DNA of 64,000 bases from Candidatus Poribacteria bacterium (GCA_028821605.1 JAPPFM010000003.1:29388-93387), one strand, 5' to 3'; counted from the first letter of the stretch, positions 6,616 through 47,666 are shown. Notes: generated by a model not told the origin, from the letters alone. Made by a program: numbers and translations.

Positions 6616-8289
<1,674 letters not shown>

Positions 8290-8302
8290 GTTCATTTATG
8301 AG

Positions 8303-8327
8303 TAGGCGCGCTGCCAAAGCGCGCCTA
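8303..8327 (+). terminator. Hairpin after groEL (TAGGCGCGC-TGCCAAA-GCGCGCCTA)
   Basis: 9-bp GC-rich stem 14 nt after the stop codon, followed by a T-rich stretch. Confidence 0.6.
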
Positions 8328-8436
8328 TCTACTTATTATTCTAATCTAAGTATAAGGTAGGCACAAGACCTACCCCTACAGAAGGTAGGCACAAGACCTA
8401 CCCCTACAGACCGGTTGATTTCTACTTATTATTCTA
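8328..8436 (+). repeat. REP doublet (2 x GGTAGGCACAAGACCTACCCCTACAGA) bracketed by a 16-bp direct repeat
   Basis: TCTACTTATTATTCTA occurs at 8328-8343 and again at 8421-8436 (16/16). The two R3 hairpins lie between them. Confidence 0.85.
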
Positions 8437-8965
8437 TATCTCTCTGTATCTGATACCGTGCTTCCATCCCGCTATCCCAATCACAATCAAGACAGAACAT
8501 CACCTTGGGTCCCAAATACTGGATGTTTTTGCTGCTGCACTCGGGGCATATTTTTATCGACTTTTCTATTTCGTCCTCCGCGTCGTGTTGGAAAATATTC
8601 AGGTAGTATATCTTTAACTCACCCGGGTAACGATGTCCCATCGGACAACGAATCAGGTTAGAGCTATTGTCGGTAAAACGTTCCATTGTTTCCCGAAGAA
8701 ACGTTAAACGGTGCTGACAGACGGGACAGGGGTTAGGGGTCAATTCTTTTACGATGACGAGGTCCGTATCTTCTGCTTGGATAGAGACTGTCAAGGCGAG
8801 GTGATGTGCGAGTTGCAAATGTGATACGCCTTGGGCTCCAAGTTTTTCAGCGAGTTCGGAGACAATTTTCGCGTAACTTTGTGGACTTAGGACCAATTCC
8901 GTTGGAATCATCGTTCCGCCCTTTAAGCTGGAGAGAAGCCGATAGATGCGTTCTAAAATGGGCAC
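8429..8965 (-). CDS. Hypothetical protein with two zinc-ribbon-like Cys pairs
   Basis: CPVCQH..(24 aa)..CPMGH and CPECSS..(15 aa)..CLDCDW. The start is ambiguous (GTG 8965 or ATG 8911). No family recognised. Confidence 0.6.
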   Translation of the reverse strand: MPILERIYRLLSSLKGGTMIPTELVLSPQSYAKIVSELAEKLGAQGVSHLQLAHHLALTVSIQAEDTDLVIVKELTPNPCPVCQHRLTFLRETMERFTDNSSNLIRCPMGHRYPGELKIYYLNIFQHDAEDEIEKSIKICPECSSKNIQYLGPKVMFCLDCDWDSGMEARYQIQRDIE

Positions 8966-8997
8966 CCACCCCCTATAATTTCATGGTGGAAAGAGAA

Positions 8998-9378
8998 TTA
9001 GACTGTTCTGCCCTCAGTCGGTTCAGAAGCCAAGGGTGTTTCGTTACTCCGCGCGAGGGGTGATGATGATACACCTCTCTGGGAACGGTAAGCGTCAGCA
9101 GGTTGATTTCGGATTAAAATCAGGTCTTCTCCATCACGTTCAATGATGTCATTTTGCATTAACGTGATTTCAAATTTTCGCATACTGGTCATAAAGTTGA
9201 TGGTGACGCGTGCCGCTGCTTCCAACTTAATTCGCCAACCGGTTTCGGTTTTCGTTCGAGTGAACCGATCGCCAATATCAAGCGACTGCATTTGCACAGC
9301 GTTAATAATGATGCCGCTTTGTGCTTGCGTCTGATTTTGGGTTTCGGTTGCATTCTCGTTGTTATTTTGTTCCGCCAT
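8998..9378 (-). CDS. Hypothetical protein (N/Q/T-rich N-terminus), upstream partner of the 8429-8965 ORF
   Basis: 126-aa ORF with GGAGTAG/GGAG-like SD (gaggtggagtagcacATG). Only a 32-nt gap to the next ORF on the same strand. Confidence 0.55.
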   Translation of the reverse strand: MAEQNNNENATETQNQTQAQSGIIINAVQMQSLDIGDRFTRTKTETGWRIKLEAAARVTINFMTSMRKFEITLMQNDIIERDGEDLILIRNQPADAYRSQRGVSSSPLARSNETPLASEPTEGRTV

Positions 9379-9572
9379 GTGCTACTCCACCTCTATAAGA
9401 TATGAATTGCGCATATTTTAGCATAGACGGTTGTCTATTGTCAAAATTATTTTTTCCCAAGAAAAAGGCGGTTAGGAAACCTCGCCAGCGGCGGGTGAGA
9501 TGGTTTAAAGATGGGACGCTTATATGGCAGTCAACAAGAGGAGCGATCGAGGTATCGTTTCTACAGAAGAAA

Positions 9573-9668
9573 GTCGGGAATCGGAGTTCCCTCTTACAGG
9601 AGACAAAAAACAGATTGACAGTCGGGAATCGGAGTTCCCTCCTACAGGAAAGAAAAAGCAGGTTGACA
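9573..9668 (+). repeat. Tandem 2 x 48-bp unit (R2 hairpin + A-rich spacer + TTGACA)
   Basis: Units 9573-9620 and 9621-9668 match at 43/48 positions. Confidence 0.9.
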
Positions 9669-9692
9669 GATGCCTCTGAATTAGACTATAAT
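9663..9692 (+). promoter_or_regulatory. Sigma70-type promoter (TTGACA-18-TATAAT); the -35 box is contributed by the second repeat unit
   Basis: TTGACA at 9663-9668, TATAAT at 9687-9692. Confidence 0.6.
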
Positions 9693-9718
9693 ATCTGGTG
9701 AAAGGACTAACATCAGAT

Positions 9719-12094
9719 ATGCGATTCACCTATTTTTGGCCCGGGTGGGCAGTTACGCTTGGCATTGGCATCGTCATCGGTATAACCGTACTTTTTTATT
9801 TCCGGGTCGCGCGTCCCATAGATCCAAGGTATAGATTTTTACTCATTGCGCTACGGATTGTTGCAGCGTCAATCCTGCTTGGGTGTCTTTTAGCCCCTGT
9901 TGTCATTGAAAAGAGAGATGTCACGCCGTCAACACATCTCTCCATTTTAGTGGACACCTCTCAAAGTATGCAACTCGTCGATCCACATATCGGTGAGATA
10001 TCCGAATCGAGGCTCAGTCAGGTGAATCAACTTCTGTTCAAGGTACCACGACCATTCCTGCAAGCCTTACAGGACAGGTTTGAGGTCCATCTCTACCCTT
10101 TCGATACGGAACTGCATCAAAGCATTCTATTGTTACAAGATGGCGATTCCCGCATGCCAGCGTTTGAACCGGAAGGTGCGCTCACTGATATTGGAACCGC
10201 TATCCGAGAGGCGGCAGCAGCATGGAAAGGACAACAAACTGCTGGTATTGTCCTTATTACAGATGGCGCGCACAATTCCGGACAATTTCCTCTGGAAAGG
10301 ATTACTGCATTGGAGGTGCCGATCTATCCAATAGGTGTCGGTTCTGTGGATCCACCAAAAGATATTCAGATTCAGCGTGTTGACTACACACCGATTGCTT
10401 ACACAAACCATGAGAGTGTCATCCGTGTGAGCGTTATGCAAACGGGCTACACTGGCAAAACGACACGACTGTCGTTGCGAGAAGCGAATAGCAAGCGTTT
10501 TATAGATGACGCGACGTTGACGTTTGAACCACATGAGGACACGGATTCCGCAAGGGACAGTACAAAACAGGTTGTTGAATTGAAGTTGACACCGCAGACA
10601 GAGGGGAACTTCCAATATACTGTCGTGCTTCCGACACTCGACGGTGAACTTACGGAGGCAAACAATCAAAAGACTTTTTCGGTGAAGGTTGTAAAAGCAA
10701 AACTCAACGTTTTTTATCTTGAAGGCAAACCGAGATGGGACTACACGTTTTTAAAACGAGCATTGGAGCGGGACCCGGATATTGAGGCGACTTGTGCGAT
10801 TTTATCGTCCAATAGATTAAATGCGCGACTTACTGGGACTGTACTCAACCGCTTAGATGGGTATTATCCACAAGCAACACCGGTATCGGACACGCCACGA
10901 TTCCCCGAAACGCCCGCTGAGTTTTCCAAGTATGATGTGTTGATTTTAGGTGATTTGGAGGGTGAGCAGCTTACCGGTACACAACAACGTGGGATTGTTG
11001 ACTTCGTTGAAATGCAGGGGAAACCGATTATTTTTCTGCCCTCTCGGCGTATGCTCGGTGTCAATGGACTTGGAAACACAGAATTGGCTCAACTTTTACC
11101 AATTGAGATTCCGCGAAACGGGTGTCGTGTAGAAGACACGGAATTCACTGTGCAGCCGACACCATCGGGAGCATTCCACCCAATGTTGCAGCTGAGTGAT
11201 ACACAAACGGACCGAACCGCAATGTTAGGGGAAAACAGTGGAACCTTATGGCGAAACATGCCGGCGTTGTCGAGATCCTTCAGTGGATTTCGTCTCAGAG
11301 GTGGCGCAACGGCTCTGATGGAGAACGGAAGAGGCACCCCGATTCTGATCCTTCAGAGAGCGGGATTGGGCAAAAGTCTGCTCATCGCGGCAGAGGGTCT
11401 CTGGAACTGGGACTTTGGTGTTAAAACTTTCAAAGACATTCGCTATCACACGATCTATCCACGCTTTTGGGCACAGGTGTTGCGATGGATGGCAACGGAC
11501 ACCGATGACAAAAACATATACCTTACGACTGATGCCTCCGCTTATGCAATAGGGGATACAGCGAAGGTTACAGCATATTTGTACTCTGAAACGTATCAAC
11601 CGCAAGCGGGAGCGACGGTCCAAATTGAAGTGGTGCCTCCCGATGGAGCAGCTTTCCAACTCCAGATACGCGCAGCGACTGAAGACACAAGTGAAGGACG
11701 TTCGCAACAGAACACAATCGCCAACATGGGGAATCTCTATGCTGCTCAATTCGCACTCTTACAGAAGGGGAACTACCGCATTCGTGCAACAGGTAGAAGT
11801 GGCAATTTAAATTTGGGCGAGGATCGGCTCGATATTTTCGTCCATCCACAGCTGGCGGAATTAGAGGCACCACAACTCAATGAAAACTTGTTGAAACAAC
11901 TCGCAGCACAAACCGGTGGTGCCTATTCTAACATAGCCGACGCGGAATCAATGCTTGAAAATATTGCCGACGTTCAACACTCTATATTTGTCGATGCAGA
12001 ACGTGAACTCTGGGCACATCCCTTGGTTCTTCTTACGGTTGTCGGATTGTTGGGGACTGAATGGTTTTTGCGTAAGCGTATTGGAATGACTTGA
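9719..12094 (+). CDS. Membrane-anchored VWA-domain protein (BatA-N-like double-TM N-terminus)
   Basis: Two N-terminal TM helices. MIDAS motif DxSxS in ILVDTSQSMQ. Large C-terminal region and a terminal TM. ATG at 9719 is preferred because GTG at 9698 lies only 6 nt after the -10 box. Confidence 0.75.
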   Translation: MRFTYFWPGWAVTLGIGIVIGITVLFYFRVARPIDPRYRFLLIALRIVAASILLGCLLAPVVIEKRDVTPSTHLSILVDTSQSMQLVDPHIGEISESRLSQVNQLLFKVPRPFLQALQDRFEVHLYPFDTELHQSILLLQDGDSRMPAFEPEGALTDIGTAIREAAAAWKGQQTAGIVLITDGAHNSGQFPLERITALEVPIYPIGVGSVDPPKDIQIQRVDYTPIAYTNHESVIRVSVMQTGYTGKTTRLSLREANSKRFIDDATLTFEPHEDTDSARDSTKQVVELKLTPQTEGNFQYTVVLPTLDGELTEANNQKTFSVKVVKAKLNVFYLEGKPRWDYTFLKRALERDPDIEATCAILSSNRLNARLTGTVLNRLDGYYPQATPVSDTPRFPETPAEFSKYDVLILGDLEGEQLTGTQQRGIVDFVEMQGKPIIFLPSRRMLGVNGLGNTELAQLLPIEIPRNGCRVEDTEFTVQPTPSGAFHPMLQLSDTQTDRTAMLGENSGTLWRNMPALSRSFSGFRLRGGATALMENGRGTPILILQRAGLGKSLLIAAEGLWNWDFGVKTFKDIRYHTIYPRFWAQVLRWMATDTDDKNIYLTTDASAYAIGDTAKVTAYLYSETYQPQAGATVQIEVVPPDGAAFQLQIRAATEDTSEGRSQQNTIANMGNLYAAQFALLQKGNYRIRATGRSGNLNLGEDRLDIFVHPQLAELEAPQLNENLLKQLAAQTGGAYSNIADAESMLENIADVQHSIFVDAERELWAHPLVLLTVVGLLGTEWFLRKRIGMT

Positions 12095-12100
12095 GGAATA

Positions 12101-12236
12101 GTTATTGGTTATCAGTTAAAGAGCGATTTGTGGAATTGACGCGACGCTCAACCGCCACAAGACCCCTCTTAAGTGAAGACTGACGACTGATAACTATCTC
12201 AACTGAAAGCCTGCGTAGCAGGCAAACCGATAACGG
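12101..12236 (+). repeat. Family H heptamer-arm inverted-repeat element in a 5' UTR
   Basis: Left arm GTTATTGGTTATCAGTT, centre ..GCCACAAGACCCCTCTTAAG.., right arm GACTGACGACTGATAACTATC. Ends 7 nt before the ATG at 12243. Confidence 0.7.
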
Positions 12237-12242
12237 CAAAAT

Positions 12243-12935
12243 ATGATACTATCAATTAAATGGAAACTACTTTTGGTCGGTTGCCTCCTACTTTGTGCGA
12301 TGATTGGAACACAGGGATGGCAAGGTTTGCAGGCTTCCAATGTCCCGCTAACGATCGCCCAAGTTCATTATGGAGGTGGTGGCGATTGGTACGGCGACGC
12401 GACGACCATTAAAAATTGGCTCCAACTTCTCCGAACCCGAATGGGTATTGAGACTACCAAGGACAGAGTAATTCTTAAGTTGACAGATCACACGCTTTAT
12501 CAATACCCGATGCTCTACTTGGTAGGACACGGGAATATTCGGTTGACTGAGAGTGAAGTTGAGGCATTGCGGGACTATCTTACGCTTGGCGGTTTCCTGT
12601 TCGCCAATGACGATTACGGACTTGATGAGAGTTTTCGCCGTGAAATGCGTCGGGTCTTTCCAGAACAGGAGCTGCAACCGATACCGAACACACATCTAAT
12701 TTATCGCTGCTTCTATGAACTGAAAGGCTTGCCGAAAATCCATGTACATGACGCTGAGCCTGCCCAAGGATTTGGACTCTTTCACGACGGACGCATGGCT
12801 GTTTATTACGCTTACAGTGCTGACATCGGTGATGGGCTTGAAGATGCTGACGTACATCCTGATGATACCCCACAAGTACGCGAACTTGCAGCAAAGATGG
12901 CAGTAAATATCGCTGTATACGCACTAACGCACTAA
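12243..12935 (+). CDS. DUF4159-like protein (Bat-cluster associated)
   Basis: Signal/TM N-terminus. HYGGGGDWYGD..LYLVGHG..GGFLFANDDYG pattern as I recall it for DUF4159. Confidence 0.7.
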   Translation: MILSIKWKLLLVGCLLLCAMIGTQGWQGLQASNVPLTIAQVHYGGGGDWYGDATTIKNWLQLLRTRMGIETTKDRVILKLTDHTLYQYPMLYLVGHGNIRLTESEVEALRDYLTLGGFLFANDDYGLDESFRREMRRVFPEQELQPIPNTHLIYRCFYELKGLPKIHVHDAEPAQGFGLFHDGRMAVYYAYSADIGDGLEDADVHPDDTPQVRELAAKMAVNIAVYALTH

Positions 12936-12940
12936 AGGAG

Positions 12941-13096
12941 GTTTTCAGTTTTCAGTTTTCAGAGGATCAGTTTTCGGTTTTCAGTTATCAGTGATAAGAG
13001 GTACTGTGGCTGCCACAAGAACCCTTTTAACTCTCACTGCAAGGAAAACCAACTGACAACTGATGACCCCTCCTCTGACAACTAATAACTGACAAC
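12941..13096 (+). repeat. Family H heptamer-arm inverted-repeat element in a 5' UTR (largest copy)
   Basis: The left arm is built from GTTTTCA/GTTATCA heptamers and the right arm from their complements (ACTGACAAC, ACTGATGAC). The centre contains GCCACAAGAACCCTTTTAA. Ends 9 nt before the ATG at 13106. Confidence 0.8.
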
Positions 13097-13105
13097 TATT
13101 ATACG

Positions 13106-16100
13106 ATGGAAACACAAGATGTAAACCGCGCTTACGAAAATATTATAAGTCGCTTGCATGCCGTTCGGAGACAGTGGCGATGGCTTATTTTCTCCGAAAG
13201 CGTGCTAAAGTGCTTTGCGATTCTTGCGCTGCTGATGACAAGCACCCTTATCATTTTAACGGTTAGTTTTCAAGCATGGCAGTTTCCTTTCTCGCGTTGG
13301 ATACGTATCGCGATCCTTTTAGTGGCAATAGGTGGTGCTATCTATGCGGTCATCCGAACACTTATTCTACCTCTCTGCGGTAAATTCACGGATACTGCAG
13401 TCGCAATGCGCCTTGAATCGACACAGACAGAAACGGAATTCGCCTCTGAAAATCGAATTCTCAGTGCTATCCAACTTCGGAAAAACTTAACGGATAATCC
13501 GCTCGGATATGCCCGTGAATTTATCGAACATCTTATCGTTCAAGCCGGTCAAGATGTAGAACACGTTCAACCGAAGCAGATATTCCAGAGCGAGTTTCAG
13601 AAGATTAAACGAAATGCTGGCATTGCTATTGCAGGTGCGGGACTCCTTTTGGTTACACATCTTCTCCTACCTACCGCTTTTACAGGCTTTGCCCTGGCAT
13701 TTCAGACCTTACCGAAAGCACTGCAGGAAGATGCCGCGTATCTGAAAGACACCATTCAAATTACAGAAATTCAACCGGGTAGTATTCAGATTGAACGAGG
13801 GAGTGATGTTAAGGTGACTACCAAAGTAGATGGACATTTCGATGCGCCTGTTTCTCTCTACTATCGCGTTGGAAGTGGTGATGCCGTTACACCAACTGCT
13901 GAATGGCAACCGCTACCGATGCACCGTAACCCTATTGACCCTGGGCACATCTCACAAACTTCCGATACGCTATTTCCATACAGCGCGACGCTTGAAAATG
14001 TGACGCGTCCACTTCAATACTATATTTCTGTCAGCGAAGTGGTATCGGCGCAATATCAAGTGACAATCAGCAATGAACCAATTGTCACGCAGTTCCAGTA
14101 TCGACTTAATTATCCTGCCTACACGCGGCTACAGCCCCAGACGCTTCCTGTGGACATCGGAGACATTCAAGTGCTTTTTGGAACGGAAATTGTGTTCACC
14201 GGAAAGAGCAACAAACCGCTTCAGAAGGCATCCCTCGTCTTTGAAGCGTCAGGTGATGTTCCATTGGAAATTAGGGAGAAACATTTACAAGAGACTACTA
14301 CACAAGATGGAAGGATGGAAGGATGGAAGGATGAAGAGGTGGGCACCCACGCTTCCACCGTTCCCTCTTCCATTCAAGGATCTTTTATTGCCCAACAGAG
14401 TGGGAACTATCATATCCAAATTACAGACATTGAGGGTTTCACAAATCGGGACCCGGTGAAGTATATGCTCACTGTTCTGGAGGATGCTACCCCTGATGTT
14501 GCTATCGTCGAACCTGCACGGGATACCGTCTTGGATGATGCGATGCTGGTGGAACTGAAGGTTGAAGCCACAGATGATTATGGCATACAGGAACTCCAAT
14601 TGGTATATCGCGTTGAGAGTGAAGGTGCCGAAGAGGTGAATGTCCCGTTGAAGCGTTGGGATTCAGCGGGTACCGCCGTGCGCAGATCGGTTTCTGTGAC
14701 ATACGCATGGAACGTGGATCGGATTGGCATTTTTCCGGGTGAAGTGCTTGCTTATTACGTCCAAGCGTTGGATATCGACAACGTCTCAGGACCGAATATC
14801 GGGAAATCTCATACTTATACGCTCCGTTTCCCGTCCCTCTCCGAATTATATGACGCGATTGCTTCCGAACAAGAGGTTGAACAACGAGGACTTGAAGAGC
14901 TTGTCGATGAACAGGCGGACGCTACCGGTTTGGTTGACACGCTCCTTGATAAGATCAGGAAGAGCCAAGAGCTTACCCTCAACGATGAAAATCTGATGCA
15001 ACAGGTGCTTGAAAATCAGAAACAGATTGAGGAAACAGCCAAGCAGTTAATCGAAGATATGAAGCAGACGGCAAAGGAGATGGAGCAGGATCAACTCTTT
15101 GATACTGAAACTATTGAGAAATATCAGGAACTGCAAAACCTGATGGAGAAGGCACTTTCTGAAGAGCATAAAGAACTTTTGCGGAAGCTTTCAGAAGCCC
15201 TGGCGAAACAGCAGATGAGTGAACAAGAGCAGTCAATGACGGAAGCGAATCTCAGTCAAGAACAGTTTTTACAACAATTGGAACGTGCCAAATCGCTTTA
15301 TGAACAGATTCTCCTTCAGCAAAGACTTGAGGCTGCCGCCAAACAAGCAGAGGCTCTCGCTGAACAACAGAAGCAGCTGATGGATACGCTGGAATCGGAA
15401 GCACAATCCGCGCCTATAAATGACCTTGCAGAAAAAGAGGATAGAGTCGCAAGCGAGTTTGAACATCTCAGCGAGGAGTTAGATGAACTCGGCACCGAGA
15501 TGAAGGATATGGCTCAAAACAGTGACAATGCTCCACCGCAAATAGAGCGACTTGCGGACGAGATCAAACGGCTCAATCAGTTTGCACGCGATCAGAATTT
15601 GTCGGAAATGCTTGAGGCGACCAGTGAAAGTCTCCGAAGTGGACAGAACAGTGAGGCACTCGAATCGGGGCGGGAAGCAGAACAGACACTCACAGAGGTC
15701 GCGCAAGGCTTGGATAACGCGCTTGCATTCATGGAAGGTGCGAATGCGAACGAAACGCTGACCGCAATGCAGGAAGCCGTTCAAAGTGGGCTTCATCTCT
15801 CACATCTCCATGAAAAGGTGCTCACCCAAACCAATGACATTCTCATCGCTGGGCAAACTGATGCCTATATTCCGAATGAGATTGTGCGCTTGCAGCAACT
15901 CGCCGCTGATGAACTCGGTGCGGCGGAGAGTATTACTCAACTCTCCAGTAAGCTTTGGGAGTTAGGGAGCCGACAGATGGAAGTGCCGCCCGAAGTTATA
16001 TGGCATCTTAACGCCTCAAACGATGCACTCTCGCGTGCCGCACGTGCCTTGGAGGATAGACAACCGAGCCTCGCACTGCCGATCCAAAAGGCTGCGCTTG

Positions 16101-40171: not shown

Positions 40172-41218
40172 ATGCTTTATTCCATCATCGTTAGTGCAGG
40201 ATTAGAGAACATCGCACGCGAGGAGTTATCCGCGCGTTTTGAAACCAATCTGAAAATCCTGGAACGTAAACCGCAGCGCATCCTCTTCCAATATGCGGGT
40301 AACCCGCGTGAGCTGCTATCTCTGCGAACAGCCGAACATCTCTTTCTCATTCTAAAGCGGATACCGAAGATGACACGCTCGCGCAATTCGTTGGCAGTGT
40401 TGCGTGGTTCACTGGCGCGCTTAAGTTTCAAGGAGATGTCCGAGTGCTGTCGGCAGGTGGGTATCAATGTGCGGAAACGGATGCCGTTTCGGGTGACGAG
40501 TCGGTTGTCTGGCAAACGCAACTTCCGCCGTCTCGATCTGCAGCGGGTGATTGAACGCGCTTTATCGGAACGAGGATGGTATTTGGCATCAACGAAGGCA
40601 GCACTGGATGTCTGGGCAGAGGTGCATGGAGACGACGGCTATATCAGTATCAAGCTTTCCTCAAACGATATGGCGCAGCGTCCATATAAACAAGCACATA
40701 TCCCCGCGTCCCTCAAACCGACGTTGGCGTATAGCATGGTGCGCCTTTCAAAACCCCACCCGGACGATGTCTTTTTAGACGCTATGTGTGGTGCTGGAAC
40801 GATTCTTTTGGAACGCGCGCTTATGGGTCGCTACCGTTATCTCATCGGTGGTGATGTCTCTACAGAGGCGTTAGATGCTACCGTAACGAATTTCGGTAGG
40901 AAACATCAACCGCGTCAATTCTTCCATTGGGATGCACGCACTTTACCACTACAACCGAACACAGTTGATAAAATCGTCTGTAATCTCCCGTTCGGTGAGA
41001 CTATCGGAAACATTCCTCAGTTGACGAATCTATATCGGCACTGCCTCAAGGAGTCTGCGCGCGTCTTGAAACCGAGGGGGAGGATGGTGCTGCTCACCTC
41101 GCAACGTACACTTCTCAATGACGAACTGGAAAAACTGCGTTTTCTCGGTGTTCAGCAACGGTTGACAGTCGATGTCCGTGGAAAACAAGCATGGATATAT
41201 GTCATCCGTTTTACATAG
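40172..41218 (+). CDS. THUMP-domain class I SAM-dependent RNA methyltransferase (UPF0020/RlmL-like)
   Basis: SAM motif I DAMCGAGTILLE and motif IV CNLPFG after an N-terminal THUMP-like region. Confidence 0.75.
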   Translation: MLYSIIVSAGLENIAREELSARFETNLKILERKPQRILFQYAGNPRELLSLRTAEHLFLILKRIPKMTRSRNSLAVLRGSLARLSFKEMSECCRQVGINVRKRMPFRVTSRLSGKRNFRRLDLQRVIERALSERGWYLASTKAALDVWAEVHGDDGYISIKLSSNDMAQRPYKQAHIPASLKPTLAYSMVRLSKPHPDDVFLDAMCGAGTILLERALMGRYRYLIGGDVSTEALDATVTNFGRKHQPRQFFHWDARTLPLQPNTVDKIVCNLPFGETIGNIPQLTNLYRHCLKESARVLKPRGRMVLLTSQRTLLNDELEKLRFLGVQQRLTVDVRGKQAWIYVIRFT

Positions 41219-41308: not shown

Positions 41309-42394
41309 CTAAATCTCCGGCACTCTTACTGCAACCTCTTTACCGGCTGCATGCGAACGGAAAATACCATCCATAATCACGTTTGTGAGGAGTACGCCTT
41401 CCGGTGGTATTGGCGATGGTGCGTCTGCCTTAACTGCCTCACGGAATGCGATCATCTGTGCCGCCCAGTTATCAGACTGCGGGAATCCTGAGAATTGGAT
41501 CGTCGTCATCCCTTCTGGTGGGTTCGGTTCTGCAGTTAATCCTTCTGCTTCGACAAACTTCTTGAGCTCACCATCATACGCATCGGCATAAATAACCGGT
41601 CCACTCAACGCGAAACCCGCTTTCGTCCCGAGATGGAAGTTGCCACCGAGCGAGTCCTGATGCACTGCCCAAGAGATTTTGAACACCATCACACCACCAT
41701 TTTCAAACCGGACCCACGCTGCGCCGAACTCTTCAACATCCATGATGCCCTTAAATCTCGGATCCTGCTGGGAGATGTAATCCTCGGTGATCGCGGAGAC
41801 ACGCACGGGTTTCGGGTACCCCATCGCATACAGCGAAGCGTGCATATTGTAGACCCCGATATCAACGGTTGCCCCGGCACCCGCTGTCTTTTTGTAGATG
41901 AACGTATGCCCTGGATTCCCGCGGCGTCTGCAGCCTGCAGATTCAGAGTAATAAATATCACCGAACAATCCCGCATCGAACGCTTTTCTTATGAATTGGA
42001 TCCTTGGATCAAACGTGGGATTGAGACCGATTTGTAAGATTTTGCCTGATGCCTTCGCTGCCCGCACCATCGCTGTCGCATCTGGGAGTGTCGCTGCCAT
42101 CGGTTTTTCGCAGAGGACGTGTTTACCGGCGTTCAATGCTGCCACTGTCGGTCGCCGATGTCCCTGATTGTAAGTGCAGACACTCACACCATCAAGCTCG
42201 TCCATTTCGAGCATTTTGTTGTAGCTTGAAAAAGCGTTCTTTCTGGGGACACCCCACTCGTCAGCGGCTTGGTTCGCCTTACTTTTGATGATGTCGCAGA
42301 CCGCTACGATTTCAAAACCGCCTACTTTCTCATAGGTGCTTCGGTGTGCTCGTGAAATGCCACCTGTACCAATAATACCAACCTTGACAGTCAT
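41309..42394 (-). CDS. Gfo/Idh/MocA-family oxidoreductase, paralog 1
   Basis: GIIGTGGISRAH Rossmann motif, LCEKPMA. 361 aa. Confidence 0.9.
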   Translation of the reverse strand: MTVKVGIIGTGGISRAHRSTYEKVGGFEIVAVCDIIKSKANQAADEWGVPRKNAFSSYNKMLEMDELDGVSVCTYNQGHRRPTVAALNAGKHVLCEKPMAATLPDATAMVRAAKASGKILQIGLNPTFDPRIQFIRKAFDAGLFGDIYYSESAGCRRRGNPGHTFIYKKTAGAGATVDIGVYNMHASLYAMGYPKPVRVSAITEDYISQQDPRFKGIMDVEEFGAAWVRFENGGVMVFKISWAVHQDSLGGNFHLGTKAGFALSGPVIYADAYDGELKKFVEAEGLTAEPNPPEGMTTIQFSGFPQSDNWAAQMIAFREAVKADAPSPIPPEGVLLTNVIMDGIFRSHAAGKEVAVRVPEI

Positions 42395-42442: not shown

Positions 42443-43528
42443 CTAAATTTCCGGTACTCGGACCGCAACCTCTTTCCCTGTTTCGTGTGATCGGAAAATG
42501 CCATCCATAATCACATTTGTGAGCAGTACGCCCTCTGGCGGTATCGGTGATGGTGCGTCTGCCTTAACTGCCTCACGGAATGCCGTCATCTGTGCTTGCC
42601 AGACATTGACCTCTTTAAACCCAGAGAACTGGATCGTTGTCATCCCTTCCGGTGGGTTTGCTTCAGCGGTGAGTCCTTCGGATTTAACTAACTTCTTAAG
42701 ATCATTTGTATATCCATCGGCATAGACAGTTGGTCCACCCAAGGAGATCCCCATTTCCTTACCGAGACAGAAACTGGGACCGAGCGAATCCTGATGAATC
42801 GCCCAAGAGATTTTGAATACCATCACGCCACCATTTTCAAAACGCACCCATGCGACACCAAACTCTTCGACATCCATAATCCCTCGAAATTGGGGATCTT
42901 GCTGTGAGATATAATCCTCGGTAATCGCGGAGACACGCACGGGTTTCGGATATCCCATCGCATACAGTGAATCGTGCATATTGTAGACCCCGATGTCTAC
43001 GATCGCACCGGCACCTGCTGTTTTCTTGTAGATGAACGTGCGCGCTGGATTCCCGCGGCGCCTGCATGCTGCAGATTCAGAATAATAGATGTCACCGAGC
43101 AGTCCTTCATCAATTACTTTCTTAGCGAATTGGAGTCTCGGATTAAACGTGCTGTGGATACCGATCTGCAAGATTTTGCCCGACGCTTTCGCTGCCCGCA
43201 CCATTGCGGTCGCATCTGGAAGTGTCGCCGCCATGGGCTTTTCACAGAAGACGTGTTTGCCAGCGTTTAGTGCAGCAACTGTCGGTCGTCTGTGTCCTTG
43301 GTTGTAGGTGCAAACGCTTACTGTGTCGATTTCGTCCATCTCAAGCATCTTGTTGTAACTTGTGAAGACGTTCTTTCTCGGAACATCCCACTGATCGGCA
43401 GCTTCGTTTGCCTTGCTTTTGATAATGTCGCACACCGCGACGATCTCGAAGCCACCTACTTGTGTGTAAGCCCTCTGATGCGCCCGTGAAATACCACCCG
43501 TACCCACAATACCGACTCGAATCGTCAT
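42443..43528 (-). CDS. Gfo/Idh/MocA-family oxidoreductase, paralog 2 (tandem duplicate)
   Basis: 361 aa and gap-free collinear with paralog 1. By eye, roughly four of five residues are identical. Confidence 0.9.
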   Translation of the reverse strand: MTIRVGIVGTGGISRAHQRAYTQVGGFEIVAVCDIIKSKANEAADQWDVPRKNVFTSYNKMLEMDEIDTVSVCTYNQGHRRPTVAALNAGKHVFCEKPMAATLPDATAMVRAAKASGKILQIGIHSTFNPRLQFAKKVIDEGLLGDIYYSESAACRRRGNPARTFIYKKTAGAGAIVDIGVYNMHDSLYAMGYPKPVRVSAITEDYISQQDPQFRGIMDVEEFGVAWVRFENGGVMVFKISWAIHQDSLGPSFCLGKEMGISLGGPTVYADGYTNDLKKLVKSEGLTAEANPPEGMTTIQFSGFKEVNVWQAQMTAFREAVKADAPSPIPPEGVLLTNVIMDGIFRSHETGKEVAVRVPEI

Positions 43529-43667
43529 ATTGCTATCTCCTCATGCGTAGAATAGAATTGCCAAAAGTTTAGACGAAATCGGTTTGCAATGCAAGGGAAA
43601 AAATTGTGTGCTACTAAGGTGCTTCACAAAGCACCCTTCTCGTTTACCAGCACAGGCTTTTTCTATA

Positions 43668-44621
43668 CTACTGCTTCAATACTTCCTCGCGATGCCACGT
43701 CAAAGCCTCCTGAGCTGGGTAAAGTTCATTATGCTCAGGCAATAGTATTGACTTACCCCGCAAGGTCGTTAGCAACCACTCTGTAGGTCCACGCTCTGAC
43801 ATAAGTTCTGAAACGATCACTTGGTAGGTCTTGCCCAAGGAAATCAAGCCCGCGTCAAAAGCCCAATGATGGAGTTGGCAGAGAGAAATCCCGTTCCGTA
43901 CATCGTTATTTCCTGAAACCTTGAATGGAATGATGTGTGCAGCTTCTGTCACACTTTCTCCATCCATTGTAATAATACGCAATTGGCAAACAGCACAAGT
44001 GTAATCGTATATTCTCATGATTGCTTGACGGAAACCTGCAGTCCGAATTGGATTATCTTCTTCTGTTGGTGTCAACGGTTGTAGAGATGAAAACGTTTGT
44101 TTAACTTGCTGCAGTAGTGCTTGTCTGTACTCACCGATCTGCTGTTCCTCAGTTATAAGACTCTCAATATCTGTTTTGAAATCTGTGAAATAGGTATCTA
44201 TAAGGGTTTGACGGATTACCTCTCGATCATGGTCATTCGTAAGTAAGAAAAAAAATTCATCATCAAAACTTGCAGACGCGATCACCTCACGAATACGAGA
44301 AGATGTTTTAAGTTGAGATGCAACGCTTAATGCTGTTTCATATCCAGGATTTGCGTGGAGGTGCCAGAATCCCTCGCTTTTTAAGTGGAAAAACGGCATA
44401 GCGATGTTAGGTTTCCGATCCGTCACTTTAGTCCAATATTTCAAGAAAGCCTCCGCCAAATCAGGGGAAAGGACGATTCTGTTTTCAAGAATCTGTCCCT
44501 GTTCAATGAGTTCAATAACTGCTAACAACAAAAGGGGTTTATTAGGGGCTGCGCCGCGTGCTTTGTCTATTCGCAACCTTTCCATTTTCTGGATGTATTT
44601 TTGTAGGATATTATTGGGCAT
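43668..44621 (-). CDS. HNH (His-Me finger, HNH_2-like) endonuclease with an unassigned ~200-aa N-terminal reader-like domain
   Basis: C-terminal AAHIIPFKVSGNNDVRNGISLCQLHHWAFDAGLISL. The N-terminus has RGAAPNKPLLLLAVIELIEQG.. and PFFHLKSEGFWHL. Confidence 0.8.
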   Translation of the reverse strand: MPNNILQKYIQKMERLRIDKARGAAPNKPLLLLAVIELIEQGQILENRIVLSPDLAEAFLKYWTKVTDRKPNIAMPFFHLKSEGFWHLHANPGYETALSVASQLKTSSRIREVIASASFDDEFFFLLTNDHDREVIRQTLIDTYFTDFKTDIESLITEEQQIGEYRQALLQQVKQTFSSLQPLTPTEEDNPIRTAGFRQAIMRIYDYTCAVCQLRIITMDGESVTEAAHIIPFKVSGNNDVRNGISLCQLHHWAFDAGLISLGKTYQVIVSELMSERGPTEWLLTTLRGKSILLPEHNELYPAQEALTWHREEVLKQ

Positions 44622-44784
44622 CTTTTTAGTGTTACCTCGGAGAAACGTAGCTGATCCTTTCTACTGTTCCAATGGGAAAGGTGTCTCTACAGGCCTCACA
44701 AGATTTGAAGTCCTTTGGTCACCCAGAATAGTATCTAAATTGGAGACAAGAGCGTTAGGAAAGTTATTACGAATAGAATATAGG

Positions 44785-46053
44785 TTACAGCACTTTTTTA
44801 GGCAATTCAACTTCTTCAATTTCGATGCCTATTGCCTTGGCATAATCGTTGCGCAATTTATCTACATCTCTCGAAAAATGATTTAGCATATAGAGTAGCA
44901 AATTTTTAACGAGCGTTTTACCTTTTATTAACATTTTTTTTTGTGTGGGGTGCCAGATAACCCCATTATAAGGCGTTTGAGTCAGGTCTGTAGGTAACTT
45001 TGAAATCATCTTGAAACACTTGGATAGTGGATATTTCTCAACGAGTTCTGCGATGATTTCTGTTAAGATTTGCAGTCCTATAGGGCGGAAAAGCACACTA
45101 CCTCCCTCTGGATGTCTATATTTCTTGACAACTGTTGAATTATCAGAGGTGTTGACGAATTCCTGCAGTGGTAAAAAACTGTCTGTAAGCCGTTTAAAAT
45201 AATCACAAGCATTGTGGTAATGTTCATCAAGAATGTGATTTGGTTGACGCACTTTTGTAAGTTCATCTTTTCGATTATTGAAAGTCTTCTTCTTTGAGAT
45301 AACGTATATTTTTGTAAATAGTATACTTAGCAAATCGTAAAGATTTCCAATCGTAGTGAGGCAGGTCTGGTTGCTTTTCGGGATATTATCAGTTACGTTG
45401 TTTAAGATTCGATCCTCTACAAACATCGAATTTTCCGTAACCAGCCTCCGGACAGTAATAGCCATTGTATCGTCTTCATCAAGAGCGACCATTTCTCCTT
45501 TTGAAACTCGGACAGTATTTTTGTTCAACGTCGTGAAAAGTCTTCGGGTTCTTTCCATTCCGTTCATATCTGTCCTATGAGCAATAAAGATTATTGACAA
45601 CTCGTCTTCACCCAAGTGAGGAGCCTCTGCCACTGCTTCCTTAATTCCTATGAGTCGGTGTTGCCCATCCAGTGTGAATAATTCTTCTTCGCCGTTCAAG
45701 CTAAGAATTCCGATTCCAGCGACTACATCTTCAGGGATATCCTCAGAGTCGTATTGGCTATTACTCTCAAGATGGGTAATATCATACCAAGTGGGATCGC
45801 CTTCATAGACGGCTACAATCAGCGAATTAAAAAAACGTTGTTCATGTTTAAGGAGGTAATCTTTTATTTCCTTGCCACTTTTTCTTTTTATCTCTTGCTG
45901 TACCATTTCGCTCAAGGTTTTGCTTTGATAAATTTCCTCAGCAATCTTGACCCTTTCGGCAATATCCTTGAGTTTCATAAGTGTCGGGTAATATACCCAA
46001 TCACCTATTATGCCTCTTAGCGAGGGAAGATATAATTTTTTCATAATTTTCAC
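44785..46053 (-). CDS. DGQHR-domain protein (DndB/DpdB-like, ParB/Srx fold)
   Basis: Literal DGQHR motif in EELFTLDGQHRLIGIKEAV, followed by RRLFTTLNKNTVRVSKGEMVALDEDD. The start is GTG at 46053 (overlaps the upstream stop as GTGA) or ATG at 46044. Confidence 0.85.
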   Translation of the reverse strand: MKIMKKLYLPSLRGIIGDWVYYPTLMKLKDIAERVKIAEEIYQSKTLSEMVQQEIKRKSGKEIKDYLLKHEQRFFNSLIVAVYEGDPTWYDITHLESNSQYDSEDIPEDVVAGIGILSLNGEEELFTLDGQHRLIGIKEAVAEAPHLGEDELSIIFIAHRTDMNGMERTRRLFTTLNKNTVRVSKGEMVALDEDDTMAITVRRLVTENSMFVEDRILNNVTDNIPKSNQTCLTTIGNLYDLLSILFTKIYVISKKKTFNNRKDELTKVRQPNHILDEHYHNACDYFKRLTDSFLPLQEFVNTSDNSTVVKKYRHPEGGSVLFRPIGLQILTEIIAELVEKYPLSKCFKMISKLPTDLTQTPYNGVIWHPTQKKMLIKGKTLVKNLLLYMLNHFSRDVDKLRNDYAKAIGIEIEEVELPKKVL

Positions 46054-46553
46054 ACCTTTGATAATTTCACTGCGGCACCTATTTCGGCTGAATATCCTTC
46101 TTGGGAGTAAGGGGGTGTAAAGGTATCCAACAATCTTTGCTCCAGTTGTTTTATATGCAGTTGAGATGGATCAACTTCAACATAGTAAAAATATAGGTAG
46201 TCCTCCCATGTAGTCAACATGGAGTGAATTAGATTTCTTTTTGGCTTCTTTTTGTCATTCAGATAATCTCTAAATCTCTTTCGTAAGTTCCGGTTACTGT
46301 TATGTCCTGTTTCTCCGATGTAGGTCACATAACCGTGTGATGGAAATTGCGGAAGTCTTGGCTCAATGACAAAGGCATAAACCCCCTTTTCTGTCGGAAT
46401 CTGCGCTGCACTATTTTCCTCAAATTTTACACATTTCCAATTTAATGGAATCGGTGGAGCGATGTAAGCATCCCACCGTTCTTTCCAGAGAAGAAAATTT
46501 ACTCTATAGGTTCGTACATCCTTCCTTGGAGGTATCATATCTTGATATACCAT
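46050..46553 (-). CDS. GIY-YIG-like nuclease-fold protein
   Basis: GVYAF..(18 aa)..YIGETG, then LRKRFRDYL, then YYVEV and LEQRLLDTFTPPYS, in the GIY-YIG motif order. GAGGAG SD. Confidence 0.6.
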   Translation of the reverse strand: MVYQDMIPPRKDVRTYRVNFLLWKERWDAYIAPPIPLNWKCVKFEENSAAQIPTEKGVYAFVIEPRLPQFPSHGYVTYIGETGHNSNRNLRKRFRDYLNDKKKPKRNLIHSMLTTWEDYLYFYYVEVDPSQLHIKQLEQRLLDTFTPPYSQEGYSAEIGAAVKLSKV

Positions 46554-46581
46554 AACATCTCCTCACACGGTTTAAAAACCA

Positions 46582-46610
46582 ATTTTAACATATTTTATGA
46601 AAAAAGTCAA
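46582..46610 (-). promoter_or_regulatory. Sigma70-type promoter (TTGACT-17-TAAAAT) for the three-gene cassette
   Basis: On the minus strand: TTGACT at 46610-46605, a 17-nt spacer, TAAAAT at 46587-46582. About 25 nt upstream of the start codon at 46553. Confidence 0.6.
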
Positions 46611-46871
46611 AATTCTCATTTTTCTTATAGTCAGAGACGATAGTGCTTAAAACAAACAATTTTTGCAATAAAGTCAATTTCTTGTAAGGACAATTTTCAT
46701 TCAAAATATTTCTAATCCTGCAAATCCTGATTCTGACGACCGACAACCGAAAACTGAAAACCATTCACATTTCCCTTAACATTTCTCTCAAAATGTGTTA
46801 TCCTAAATTAGACAATGAAGGTTAGATAGCATTAAAACCGATCTGAAATTGCAGACAAGGAGGAATAAAGA

Positions 46872-47666
46872 ATGAAAAGGTTATTCTGTTTCGCCTGTGT
46901 GCTAGTGCTAATTTTCACAGGGCACACATTTGCGCAGGATGTCGCTGTTTTTTATGACGCGGCTGTTGAAAATGGAGGCGGCTTAGCCGTTCCAAACCCG
47001 CTGCAGTTAGCGGAAATGATTGTAGAGGAACTGGAGGCGAAAAAGTTAACTGCCGAAATTGTGGATAGCGACGAGTTAGCTGAGTATATGAAGGCGAATC
47101 CAAAGGGGATCTACATCATCACGCAGGGGAACACTCCTGGCACCATATTTAAGAAGGAAGGCAAGAAAGACCTTGTCTATACATGGCTAAGAGAAGGCGG
47201 GATCGGCGGCTTCATCGGCGATTACGCGTTCTACTATTACTGGGATAAAGGTGCCCGTGTTACCGCTGCCGGTGCCGGACAGCAGAGCGTGTTTGGTGCC
47301 ACAGTCACAAACGGCACAGTTTCGCAAGTTAGCCCGACGGATCTCGGTAAGGAGCTCATTCCTTCTCTCAAGAAGTGGAGTTCCAATCGTGCGTCAGGTC
47401 TCGCTGTTTTGAAAGGGAACGATTTTGAGTATGAAAGTTATGCCGACGACGGTGTAAACGCGGATCCAATCGCTTACCGCACGAAAGATATGGAGGGGTG
47501 GTTTATCAATTTCCATACCTCGTGCTGCGGAACAGCCATACCGCCGAATCCTCAAATCGCTACGGAATACGCAGAACTCATTTCAAACCGTTTTGCGACT
47601 GCAAAAGCCGTAGACCCATCAGGTAAGATCAGTGTTGTGTGGGGTCGGCTAAAATCATTGCGGTAA
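46872..47666 (+). CDS. Secreted protein of unknown function with a conserved C-terminal tail
   Basis: AAGGAGG SD and a signal peptide MKRLFCFACVLVLIFTGHTFA. The tail AVDPSGKISVVWGRLKSLR matches that of the ORF at 5450-6178. Confidence 0.8.
   Translation: MKRLFCFACVLVLIFTGHTFAQDVAVFYDAAVENGGGLAVPNPLQLAEMIVEELEAKKLTAEIVDSDELAEYMKANPKGIYIITQGNTPGTIFKKEGKKDLVYTWLREGGIGGFIGDYAFYYYWDKGARVTAAGAGQQSVFGATVTNGTVSQVSPTDLGKELIPSLKKWSSNRASGLAVLKGNDFEYESYADDGVNADPIAYRTKDMEGWFINFHTSCCGTAIPPNPQIATEYAELISNRFATAKAVDPSGKISVVWGRLKSLR

Follow-up and report, generated by a model that had tools for sequence, protein, structure and literature searches.

A 64,000-nt window from a Candidatus Poribacteria bacterium (GCA_028821605.1, JAPPFM010000003.1:29388-93387) contains, at positions 43668-46610, a cassette of three minus-strand open reading frames (ORFs), here called a, b, and c, that an earlier note made from the sequence alone had described as a candidate new defense system. 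On comparison with other genomes we found that the triad is a lineage-specific state of a Dnd/Pbe island from which the phosphorothioate (PT) writer genes are missing. ORFs a and b form a translationally coupled, co-inherited pair that is associated with PT writers in many phyla, and ORF c, which is similar to restriction endonucleases that bind PT-DNA, is found at this site where the writer gene dndE has been lost or truncated. On balance we lean toward reading the locus as a composite of two PT-related defense modules at a Poribacteria writer/reader hotspot, in which a and b would be a sensor and its effector and c an anti-PT enzyme. Reading of the sequence bore out the ORFs, coordinates, motifs, promoter, Shine-Dalgarno sequence, and GTGA overlap listed in the earlier note; the features of the cassette, counted from the first nucleotide of the window, are as follows.

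46582-46610, minus strand: sigma-70-like promoter TTGACT-17-TAAAAT, with TG before the -10 element, upstream of ORF a.
46559-46564, minus strand: Shine-Dalgarno sequence GAGGAG, 5 nt ahead of the ORF a ATG (direct reading).
46050-46553, minus strand: ORF a, predicted 167-aa divergent GIY-YIG (URI) nuclease (PF01541).
44785-46053, minus strand: ORF b, 422-aa DGQHR/DndB-like ParB-fold protein (PF14072, TIGR03187).
44777-44805, minus strand: weak promoter-like site TTGCCT-17-TATATT at the 3' end of ORF b (9 of 12 positions, consensus match only).
43668-44621, minus strand: ORF c, 317-aa SBD-HNH type IV restriction endonuclease, putatively PT-dependent (NF045808, 8h0l, PF13391).
43529-43667, no strand: 139-bp junction between ORF c and a Gfo/Idh/MocA gene, the place of dndC-dndD-dndE in sister genomes.

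In Poribacteria the position of the locus is fixed, with a secreted-protein gene on one side and two Gfo/Idh/MocA genes on the other, and a scan with Poribacteria DndC returned ~40 Poribacteria loci, most with the Gfo/Idh/MocA flank seen in the window. The full architecture of the site is GFO< GFO< [600-aa protein> PIN>] dndC> dndD> dndE> ... b< a< and/or PbeD< PbeC< PbeA< ... secreted-protein gene. Intact dndE without c was present in 23 loci, c with dndE lost or truncated in 14, both in one, and neither in none, making c and intact dndE mutually exclusive at this site (Fisher p=1.6e-9); in the lone locus with both (c and an intact dndE), c was a 184-aa fragment. On the DndC tree the c state turned up at eight or more scattered places, and the dndE stubs remaining after dndD were 73, 47, 36-37, and 33 codons long, differing lengths that therefore indicate independent breakpoints. 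The switch from writer to reader happened repeatedly at this site, with a decay series leading from dndC and dndD with c, by way of dndC with c (L006, L008, L094, L097, and L109), to c alone of these genes (the window, L005, L007, L009, and L012). Because sister genomes carry dndC-dndD-dndE at the place of the 139-bp junction (dndCD in L095, L096, and L102; dndCDE among L091-L128), the junction marks a deletion of the PT writer in the lineage of the window; a tblastn search of the window for a remnant of dndE found none. The pattern was repeated in another phylum, in a Gallionella metagenome-assembled genome (L077) in which a full-length c homolog stands in place of DndD residues 1-328. The exclusivity of c and dndE, the stubs, and the Gallionella locus are together the pattern expected if a PT writer and a PT-dependent nuclease are incompatible.

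In the writer-less loci all three cassette genes are under purifying selection, with ratios of nonsynonymous to synonymous substitution rates (dN/dS) of 0.14 (a), 0.16 (b), and 0.145 (c) over 21-45 pairwise comparisons at dS 0.6-1.3; for flanking housekeeping genes the ratio was 0.05-0.07. The DndC scan, which is not an exhaustive method, did not match the contigs of the complete genomes OZ251998.1, OX639973.1, OZ242354.1, and OZ240244.1, which have a, b, and c and no dndC in the fetched stretch, a result that speaks weakly for the absence of dndC from them. We also saw that a PIN-domain gene and a gene for a 600-aa protein without a family match are repeatedly found together, with the PT genes to one side of them and Gfo/Idh/MocA to the other (L005 at 11320-13538, L007, L015, L091, L096, L102, L110, and L112); this pair, which is not in the window, may be another defense or toxin-antitoxin module. 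The borders of the hotspot are tandem Gfo/Idh/MocA oxidoreductase paralogs on one side (window positions 41309-42394 and 42443-43528, minus strand) and, on the other, a family of 264-290-aa secreted proteins (46872-47666 in the window), with several copies in sister loci.

At its C-terminus ORF c carries the HNH motif AAHIIPF...NGISLC...HHWAFD and matches PF13391 HNH_2 (E-value 1.4e-12; HNH domain at residues 209-262, nt 43836-43997). Its residues 7-155 (nt 44157-44603) matched the crystallized sulfur-binding domain (SBD) SBDHga1 (PDB 8h0l) with a phmmer E-value of 1.2e-18, and the model NF045808, named for a "phosphorothioated DNA-binding restriction endonuclease," aligned over positions 5-284 of 284 with 145.6 bits. 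The sulfur pocket of SBDHga consists of H25, K26, L75, P76, and H79 (PMC10602919); the equivalents in ORF c are N27, K28, M75, P76, and H79, i.e., three identical residues, one conservative replacement, and one changed residue, while K70, N72, and S82, which make backbone contacts, are unchanged. By these matches ORF c would be a new member of the known SBD-HNH type IV family (of the ScoMcrA, SprMcrA, and EcoWI kind), and we infer that it cleaves DNA in a PT-dependent manner. It shares with those enzymes, and with the SBD-PD-(D/E)XK enzyme Hga, an N-terminal SBD that keeps the central Pro, His, and Lys of the pocket, and with the SBD-HNH enzymes also the C-terminal HNH domain and incompatibility with a Dnd writer; unlike ScoMcrA it has no SRA domain, and it sits beside a and b in a former dnd locus. 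The SBD-HNH gene often occurs as two diverged tandem copies (L002, L005, L013, L016, L095, L102, L123, and L158), and one possibility is that such copies differ in PT-sequence specificity.

ORFs a and b had a far wider distribution. While relatives of ORF b at ≥73% identity were all from Candidatus Poribacteria, an exhaustive search returned 344 clusters at 50% identity (E-values of 1e-30 or less) from many phyla, the family numbering ~1,400 members, and an alignment of diverse members (A1) brought in 71 further loci beyond the first scan, mostly from phyla other than Poribacteria (Dehalococcoidia, Alpha-, Beta-, and Gammaproteobacteria, Latescibacterota, Acidobacteriota, Cyanobacteria, Planctomycetota, and others). 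In loci from more than 10 phyla, iterative searches of all ORFs with hidden Markov models (HMMs) placed an ORF a homolog directly upstream of ORF b in 81 of 90; the same searches located ORF c in 19 loci only, nearly all from Poribacteria. The two genes overlapped at 73 of 80 junctions, mostly by 4 or 1 nt, as they do in the window, where a GTGA joins the stop of ORF a to the GTG start of ORF b (an alternative ATG start lies at 46044). The two proteins also co-diverge (mirror-tree r=0.89, Mantel p=0.001), and a and b are a translationally coupled, co-inherited pair. When we looked for natural fusions of the two we found only 102-223-aa deletion products from decayed loci and no genuine fusion. 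No description of a GIY-YIG protein paired with a DGQHR/DndB-like protein was found in the literature searched; the nearest earlier statement is a general one, in a reappraisal from the Aravind laboratory (PMC10853773) that places URI nucleases "at the boundaries" of Dnd loci, where they were guessed to be suicide effectors, and does not describe the coupled pair. Carriers of the pair in culture include Roseobacter litoralis (pROLI83), Devosia marina, Erwinia persicina NBRC 102418, and Rhizobium strains with Ti plasmids. Overlapping a and b were also present on four IMG/VR contigs classified as viral (L184-L187), with an SspD-like gene near two of them and no match to a PT gene near the other two; therefore the module travels on mobile elements or proviruses.

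To annotate the surroundings of the pair, neighboring ORFs were clustered without prior assumptions and the cluster representatives then annotated. The recurrent partners were the DndA/SspA desulfurase (24 loci), an SspD-like 278-aa PAPS-reductase protein (28), an SspC-like ~1100-aa P-loop protein (25), DUF4007 SspB (12), DndC (16), DndE and a DndE-HerA fusion, DndD/CxC ABC ATPases (29), and the HKD-helicase PbeA (TIGR04095; 18). Within 8 kb of the pair in the 71 loci off the window's Poribacteria site we counted SspB/C/D in 28, DndC/E in 14, PbeA in 16, and a PT writer in 42; for comparison, any dnd or ssp gene occurs in ~6% of gut genomes (PMC11185695). The commonest order was SspA< SspB> SspC> SspD> a> b>, followed by DndC> DndD> (DndE fusion)> a> b>. 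In 14 loci the gene after SspD was ORF a, co-oriented with it and at a distance of -47 to +100 nt; in five, ORF a came 15-40 nt after the DndE-HerA fusion. SspE-like DGQQR proteins were missing from 25 of the 28 Ssp loci with a and b, the pair taking the place after sspBCD that SspE usually holds. Canonical DndB was present alongside a and b in L020, L048, L050, L057, and L089, and no dpdA/tgt-like or dpdC gene was found among the recurrent neighbor clusters or in the window.

Several other associations of the pair deserve mention. The same four-gene cluster, encoding an SNF2 helicase, a ParB_N protein, an HTH_ParB protein, and a 343-aa protein, adjoins a and b in three unrelated genomes (L011 at 9370-13357, L040 at 9633-13853, and L044 at 9641-13610) and looks like an undescribed module. 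Eight loci without recognizable Ssp or Dnd genes (L029, L034, L045, L052, L070, L072, L085, and L090) have a recurrent set of companions consisting of a 949-aa protein, a DUF6339 protein, proteins of 286-328 and ~470 aa, and often a cysteine desulfurase, which may be an uncharacterized sulfur-dependent modification system. GHKL/MORC-like HATPase_c_3 proteins of 818 or 634 aa adjoin the pair in L063, L065, L066, L074, L075, and L083, which are second loci in Poribacteria, and in L026, L028, L031, and L054; the gene for the 818-aa type stops 21-25 nt upstream of ORF a. Proteins of ~1800 aa related to FtsK/SpoIIIE, with two unknown genes upstream, stand beside writer-less a and b in L023, L033, L059, L088, and L183 (Rhizobium pTiK1_93). 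The Poribacteria genome OZ244821.1 has two pairs that are ~38% identical, one with PbeACD/dndCDE and the other with sspCD.

ORF b matched PF14072 DndB (E-value 1.6e-30) and TIGR03187 DGQHR (96.5 bits, cutoff 58.85), and its homologs are labeled "DGQHR domain-containing protein" or "DndB" in RefSeq. Against the DndB equivalog model TIGR03233 it scored 61.3 bits, well short of the cutoff of 328, with only the N-terminal 190 of 355 profile positions aligned, and to judge from these scores ORF b is not a DndB equivalog. Its N-terminal domain is ParB-like, with a Q52/R53 pair, DGQHR at residues 129-133 (nt 45655-45669), and FxxxN at 173-177; the C-terminal domain is helical and has a conserved R313...GG[H/S/N]xLFRPxG motif. 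In alignment A1, Q52, D129, Q131, H132, R133, F173, N177, and R323 are invariant and R53, G130, and R313 nearly so, and 89 of the 91 DGQxR motifs counted among family members read DGQHR. An AlphaFold2 model was confident (predicted local distance difference test score, pLDDT, of 91.9), and its sole match in a fold search was ParB-N 5k5d (probability 0.99); for the C-terminal half, the search of this high-confidence model found no solved relative. SspE and DndI were not among the PDB sequences matched in profile searches with ORF b, and ORF b had no DUF262 match in Pfam. A HEPN domain, which had been suggested earlier for DndB (PMC3632139), was considered for the C-terminus of ORF b and is not claimed, as the histidine of R313-x5-H319 is present in only 27 of 54 members and is a serine in the window. 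One Poribacteria ortholog of ORF b (L014 at 8007-9251), whose upstream ORF a gene has been lost, has DGQDR for DGQHR and may be an inactivated or repurposed copy.

ORF a matched PF01541 GIY-YIG with 26 bits (gathering score 22.6), and among 59 cross-phylum homologs (25-39% identity) PF01541 was matched by 10 and GIY_YIG_2 by four. Its database matches amounted to 74 clusters, none with a functional name, and the RefSeq label of its homologs is "hypothetical protein." The protein has a conserved N-terminal extension of ~55 aa and a catalytic core at about residues 55-147 (nt 46113-46391), in which the predicted order of secondary structure, beta-beta-alpha-alpha-beta-alpha, fits the GIY-YIG core; W39, G57, Y59, Y78, R93, Y97, R106, and E138 are invariant in the 59 homologs. 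The top PDB match of the cross-phylum profile (A4) was the GIY-YIG domain of UvrC (1yd6), with a weak E-value of 0.035, and a shallower profile (A2) matched nothing relevant in the PDB. From the catalytic constellation and the core, ORF a is predicted to belong to the GIY-YIG (URI) nuclease superfamily. With PF13391 for ORF c and PF14072 and TIGR03187 for ORF b, all three domain assignments of the earlier note stand. Within Poribacteria (L001-L016 compared with the window) ORF a falls into two allelic classes, with ~90% and ~63% identity to the window, whereas ORF b in the same loci is constant at 85-92% and the mirror-tree r falls to 0.43 inside the clade, which suggests recombination that swaps the nuclease gene.

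The promoter upstream of ORF a matches the sigma-70 consensus at 10 of 12 positions, the best score within 43400-46950, and the weaker site at 44777-44805, before the 163-nt spacer between b and c, could by its sequence be a separate promoter for ORF c. The cassette is a trough in G+C content (0.375-0.397 in the three 1-kb bins from 44 to 47 kb, and mostly 0.44-0.52 elsewhere in the window). Purpose-built HMMs for DndA/C/D/E, SspB/C/D, and PbeA/C/D had no other match in the 64 kb, and Pfam scans of the ten largest other ORFs of the window found housekeeping functions and no PT-related family. The earlier note's statement that the window has no modification genes was right, but it had overlooked a UPF0020/RMKL-like (THUMP-type) methyltransferase gene at 40172-41218 (plus strand), 2.4 kb from the cassette; because this gene is syntenic and 78-85% identical among Poribacteria loci, it is probably a housekeeping RNA methyltransferase and not a DNA-modification partner. 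PADLOC v2.0.0 called no system, in agreement with the earlier note's view that the cassette is not a named one (ORF a was unmatched, ORF b matched DndB only, and the matches of ORF c were limited to generic models for HNH proteins and REases), and at the level of a system nothing in PHROGs matched the cassette.

To explain these observations we propose that ORF b would bind DNA and a nucleoside triphosphate (NTP) and sense the PT status of that DNA, and that ORF a would be a nicking or cutting effector under the control of ORF b. The closest counterparts of such a pair are SspE and DndI, which PMC11662687 and PMC9646914 describe as fused ParB-like NTPase and HNH nickases that sense PT and are partners of the Ssp and Dnd writers. 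Like SspE (SspABCD-SspE) and DndI (IscS-DndBCDE-DndI), the pair would join a ParB-superfamily NTPase-type sensor to a nuclease beside Ssp or Dnd writers, and a DGQ(H/Q)R motif lies at the equivalent place in ORF b. The differences are that SspE and DndI are fused DUF262 and DUF1524 HNH proteins, whereas a and b are two polypeptides with a GIY-YIG nuclease and a DndB-family (PF14072) sensor whose helical C-terminal domain has no solved relative, and that a and b persist without a writer in cis; adjacency to the writer is seen at the level of the family (42 of 71 loci; sspD> a> b>) and not in the window. We would thus regard a and b as a split, GIY-YIG-armed analog of SspE and DndI, a reading in keeping with the position that the pair has, in many phyla, right behind sspBCD or dndCD(E). 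ORF c, for its part, would bind the sulfur of PT-DNA and cut that DNA, and would be incompatible with a resident Dnd writer, so that its presence at the Poribacteria site is limited to loci with a destroyed dndE. In the lineage of the window the loss of dndCDE would have left a, b, and c in a cell that attacks PT-marked invaders, e.g., phages from PT-writing neighbors.

Other known systems resemble the cassette in part. DndB, the regulator of dndBCDE, and DpdB have the DGQHR domain, QR pair, and FxxxN of ORF b; ORF b is ~60 aa longer than DndB, has a GIY-YIG gene coupled upstream, and lies at the 3' end of writer operons or alone, whereas DndB comes first in dndBCDE, and in contrast to DpdB it has no dpdA/tgt gene nearby. 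GmrSD and BrxU, type IV enzymes which combine a ParB-like DUF262 domain with a His-Me nuclease, follow the same general logic of an NTP-dependent ParB-fold sensor and a nuclease, but unlike a and b they are fused, belong to other domain families, are directed at modified cytosines, and are not linked to PT writers. PbeABCD (an HKD-SF2 helicase, a CxC ABC ATPase, and small proteins) occupies the same Poribacteria site and often flanks a and b (L001, L017, and many Ssp loci), and has no component in common with the three genes of the window.

A number of observations weigh against the composite of two PT-related modules. The roles of the a and b families are predicted ones, and the GIY-YIG match of ORF a is barely over threshold (26 vs 22.6 bits); its AlphaFold2 model was mediocre (pLDDT 67.8), and a Foldseek search with it gave noise and no fold match. 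ORF b belongs to the DndB family (DGQHR) and not to DUF262 (DGQQR), and characterized DndB is a transcriptional regulator, not an effector. ORF c falls under the NF045808 cutoff (145.6 vs 180 bits), one residue of its pocket differs (H25 to N27), and in several loci with c, dndC and dndD are still intact ORFs. A recognized PT gene was absent within 8 kb in 24 of the 71 loci. Lastly, according to PMC11662687 and PMC9646914 SspE depends on host PT and DndI is toxic without it, so a pair strictly of the SspE or DndI type should decay after loss of the writer; instead, a and b stay under purifying selection next to c in writer-less loci. Their retention could be due to a second writer elsewhere in the genome or to a mode of action that is effective against PT-marked invaders as well. 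The latter thought can be carried further, to a version that we regard as possible if doubtful: a and b would be an unrecognized class of PT-sensing effector that works in either polarity, sparing PT-marked self and attacking unmarked DNA where a writer is present, and attacking PT-marked DNA, with or parallel to the SBD-HNH enzyme, where it is absent, and the locus would be a flipping switch under frequency-dependent selection among sponge symbionts that share phages.

The family membership of ORF b, which matches Pfam DndB and in part TIGR03233, raises the alternative that a and b belong to the modification machinery, with b as an NTP-dependent regulator or limiter of PT writing (the role of DndB, which Ssp operons lack), a supplying or processing nicks for sulfur insertion, and the pair in the window a leftover of the deleted writer. 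The operon-like position after sspBCD or dndCD(E), the absence of any other DndB from several DndC> DndD> (DndE fusion)> a> b> loci, and the description of DndB as an ATP-modulated repressor (PMC10853773) agree with this. We nevertheless think it unlikely, given that at least 10 Poribacteria loci without a writer keep a and b intact under purifying selection, and that a and b stand alone in 24 of 71 loci (among them a Rhizobium Ti-plasmid defense island with SIR2, PIN, and FtsK genes), coexist with canonical DndB in the five loci named above, and are carried by four IMG/VR viral contigs, two of which have no PT-gene match nearby. The same 24 loci without a recognized PT gene, together with the persistence of the pair without a writer and the variety of its other neighbors (GHKL ATPases, FtsK-like translocases, and the SNF2 and ParB module), could instead mean that a and b are a PT-independent stand-alone defense or abortive-infection module, in which, as in GmrSD and BrxU, a ParB-like NTPase sensor restrains a nuclease toxin and which merely shares islands with PT systems. 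This seems to us improbable: the association is specific to writer genes in its fixed order, common strand, and operon spacing, the 42 of 71 loci with a writer are far over the ~6% genome-level base rate quoted above for gut genomes, and a generic island effect would not repeatedly place a and b right after sspD.

The earlier note had itself proposed that the three genes form one autonomous cassette; in an obligate system of three components, c would be the reader, b the transducer, and a the executor. In line with an obligate triad, a, b, and c are co-oriented and syntenic in ~10 Poribacteria genomes and under similar purifying selection. Away from the window's Poribacteria site, however, c accompanies a and b in only 3 of 71 loci, which contrasts with the 81 of 90 for a with b; the site itself also holds a and b with PbeACD/dndCDE and no c (L001, L011, and L017), c occurs without a and b in L158 and is often tandemly duplicated, the spacer between b and c varies from 16 to 163 nt and has its own promoter-like site, and SBD-HNH enzymes act alone (PMC10602919). 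We consider a single three-component system quite improbable. The observation made in the earlier note was confirmed and its interpretation borne out in part: modification sensing is supported by the SBD match of ORF c, which would make it a PT reader-nuclease, while the triad is neither new throughout, ORF c falling in an already characterized family, nor unconnected to named systems, a and b being strongly tied to Ssp/Dnd writers and Pbe modules, and sister genomes carrying dndCDE and PbeACD at the site. As for the cassette being a decaying, non-functional remnant of a Dnd/Pbe island, decay is plain in sister loci (a is gone in L006 and L014, L013 has an in-frame deletion joining a and b, L015 has truncations, and L014 has the DGQDR change), but the ORFs of the window are full length with catalytic residues intact, their promoter and Shine-Dalgarno sequence are intact as well, and dN/dS values of 0.14-0.16 contradict a pseudogene model, so that we give this explanation very little credence.

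To our knowledge there are at present four kinds of effector partner in PT immunity, namely DndFGH/SspFGH, PbeABCD, SspE, and DndI. On our preferred reading of the locus as a composite of two modules, a and b would be a fifth, widespread and unnamed, that sets another nuclease fold on ParB-type sensing logic, and it is experimentally tractable since cultured hosts carry the pair. That an SBD-HNH gene has repeatedly taken the place of dndE at one site gives direct evidence, from genomes, of mutual exclusion between PT writers and PT-dependent restriction enzymes, and cautions that SBD-HNH genes inside dnd loci need not cooperate with an active writer. This recurrent replacement of writer by reader is a clean natural experiment. 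It also suggests a way in which closely related symbionts within a sponge could vary their defenses, by switching between a state that marks DNA and one that attacks marked DNA.

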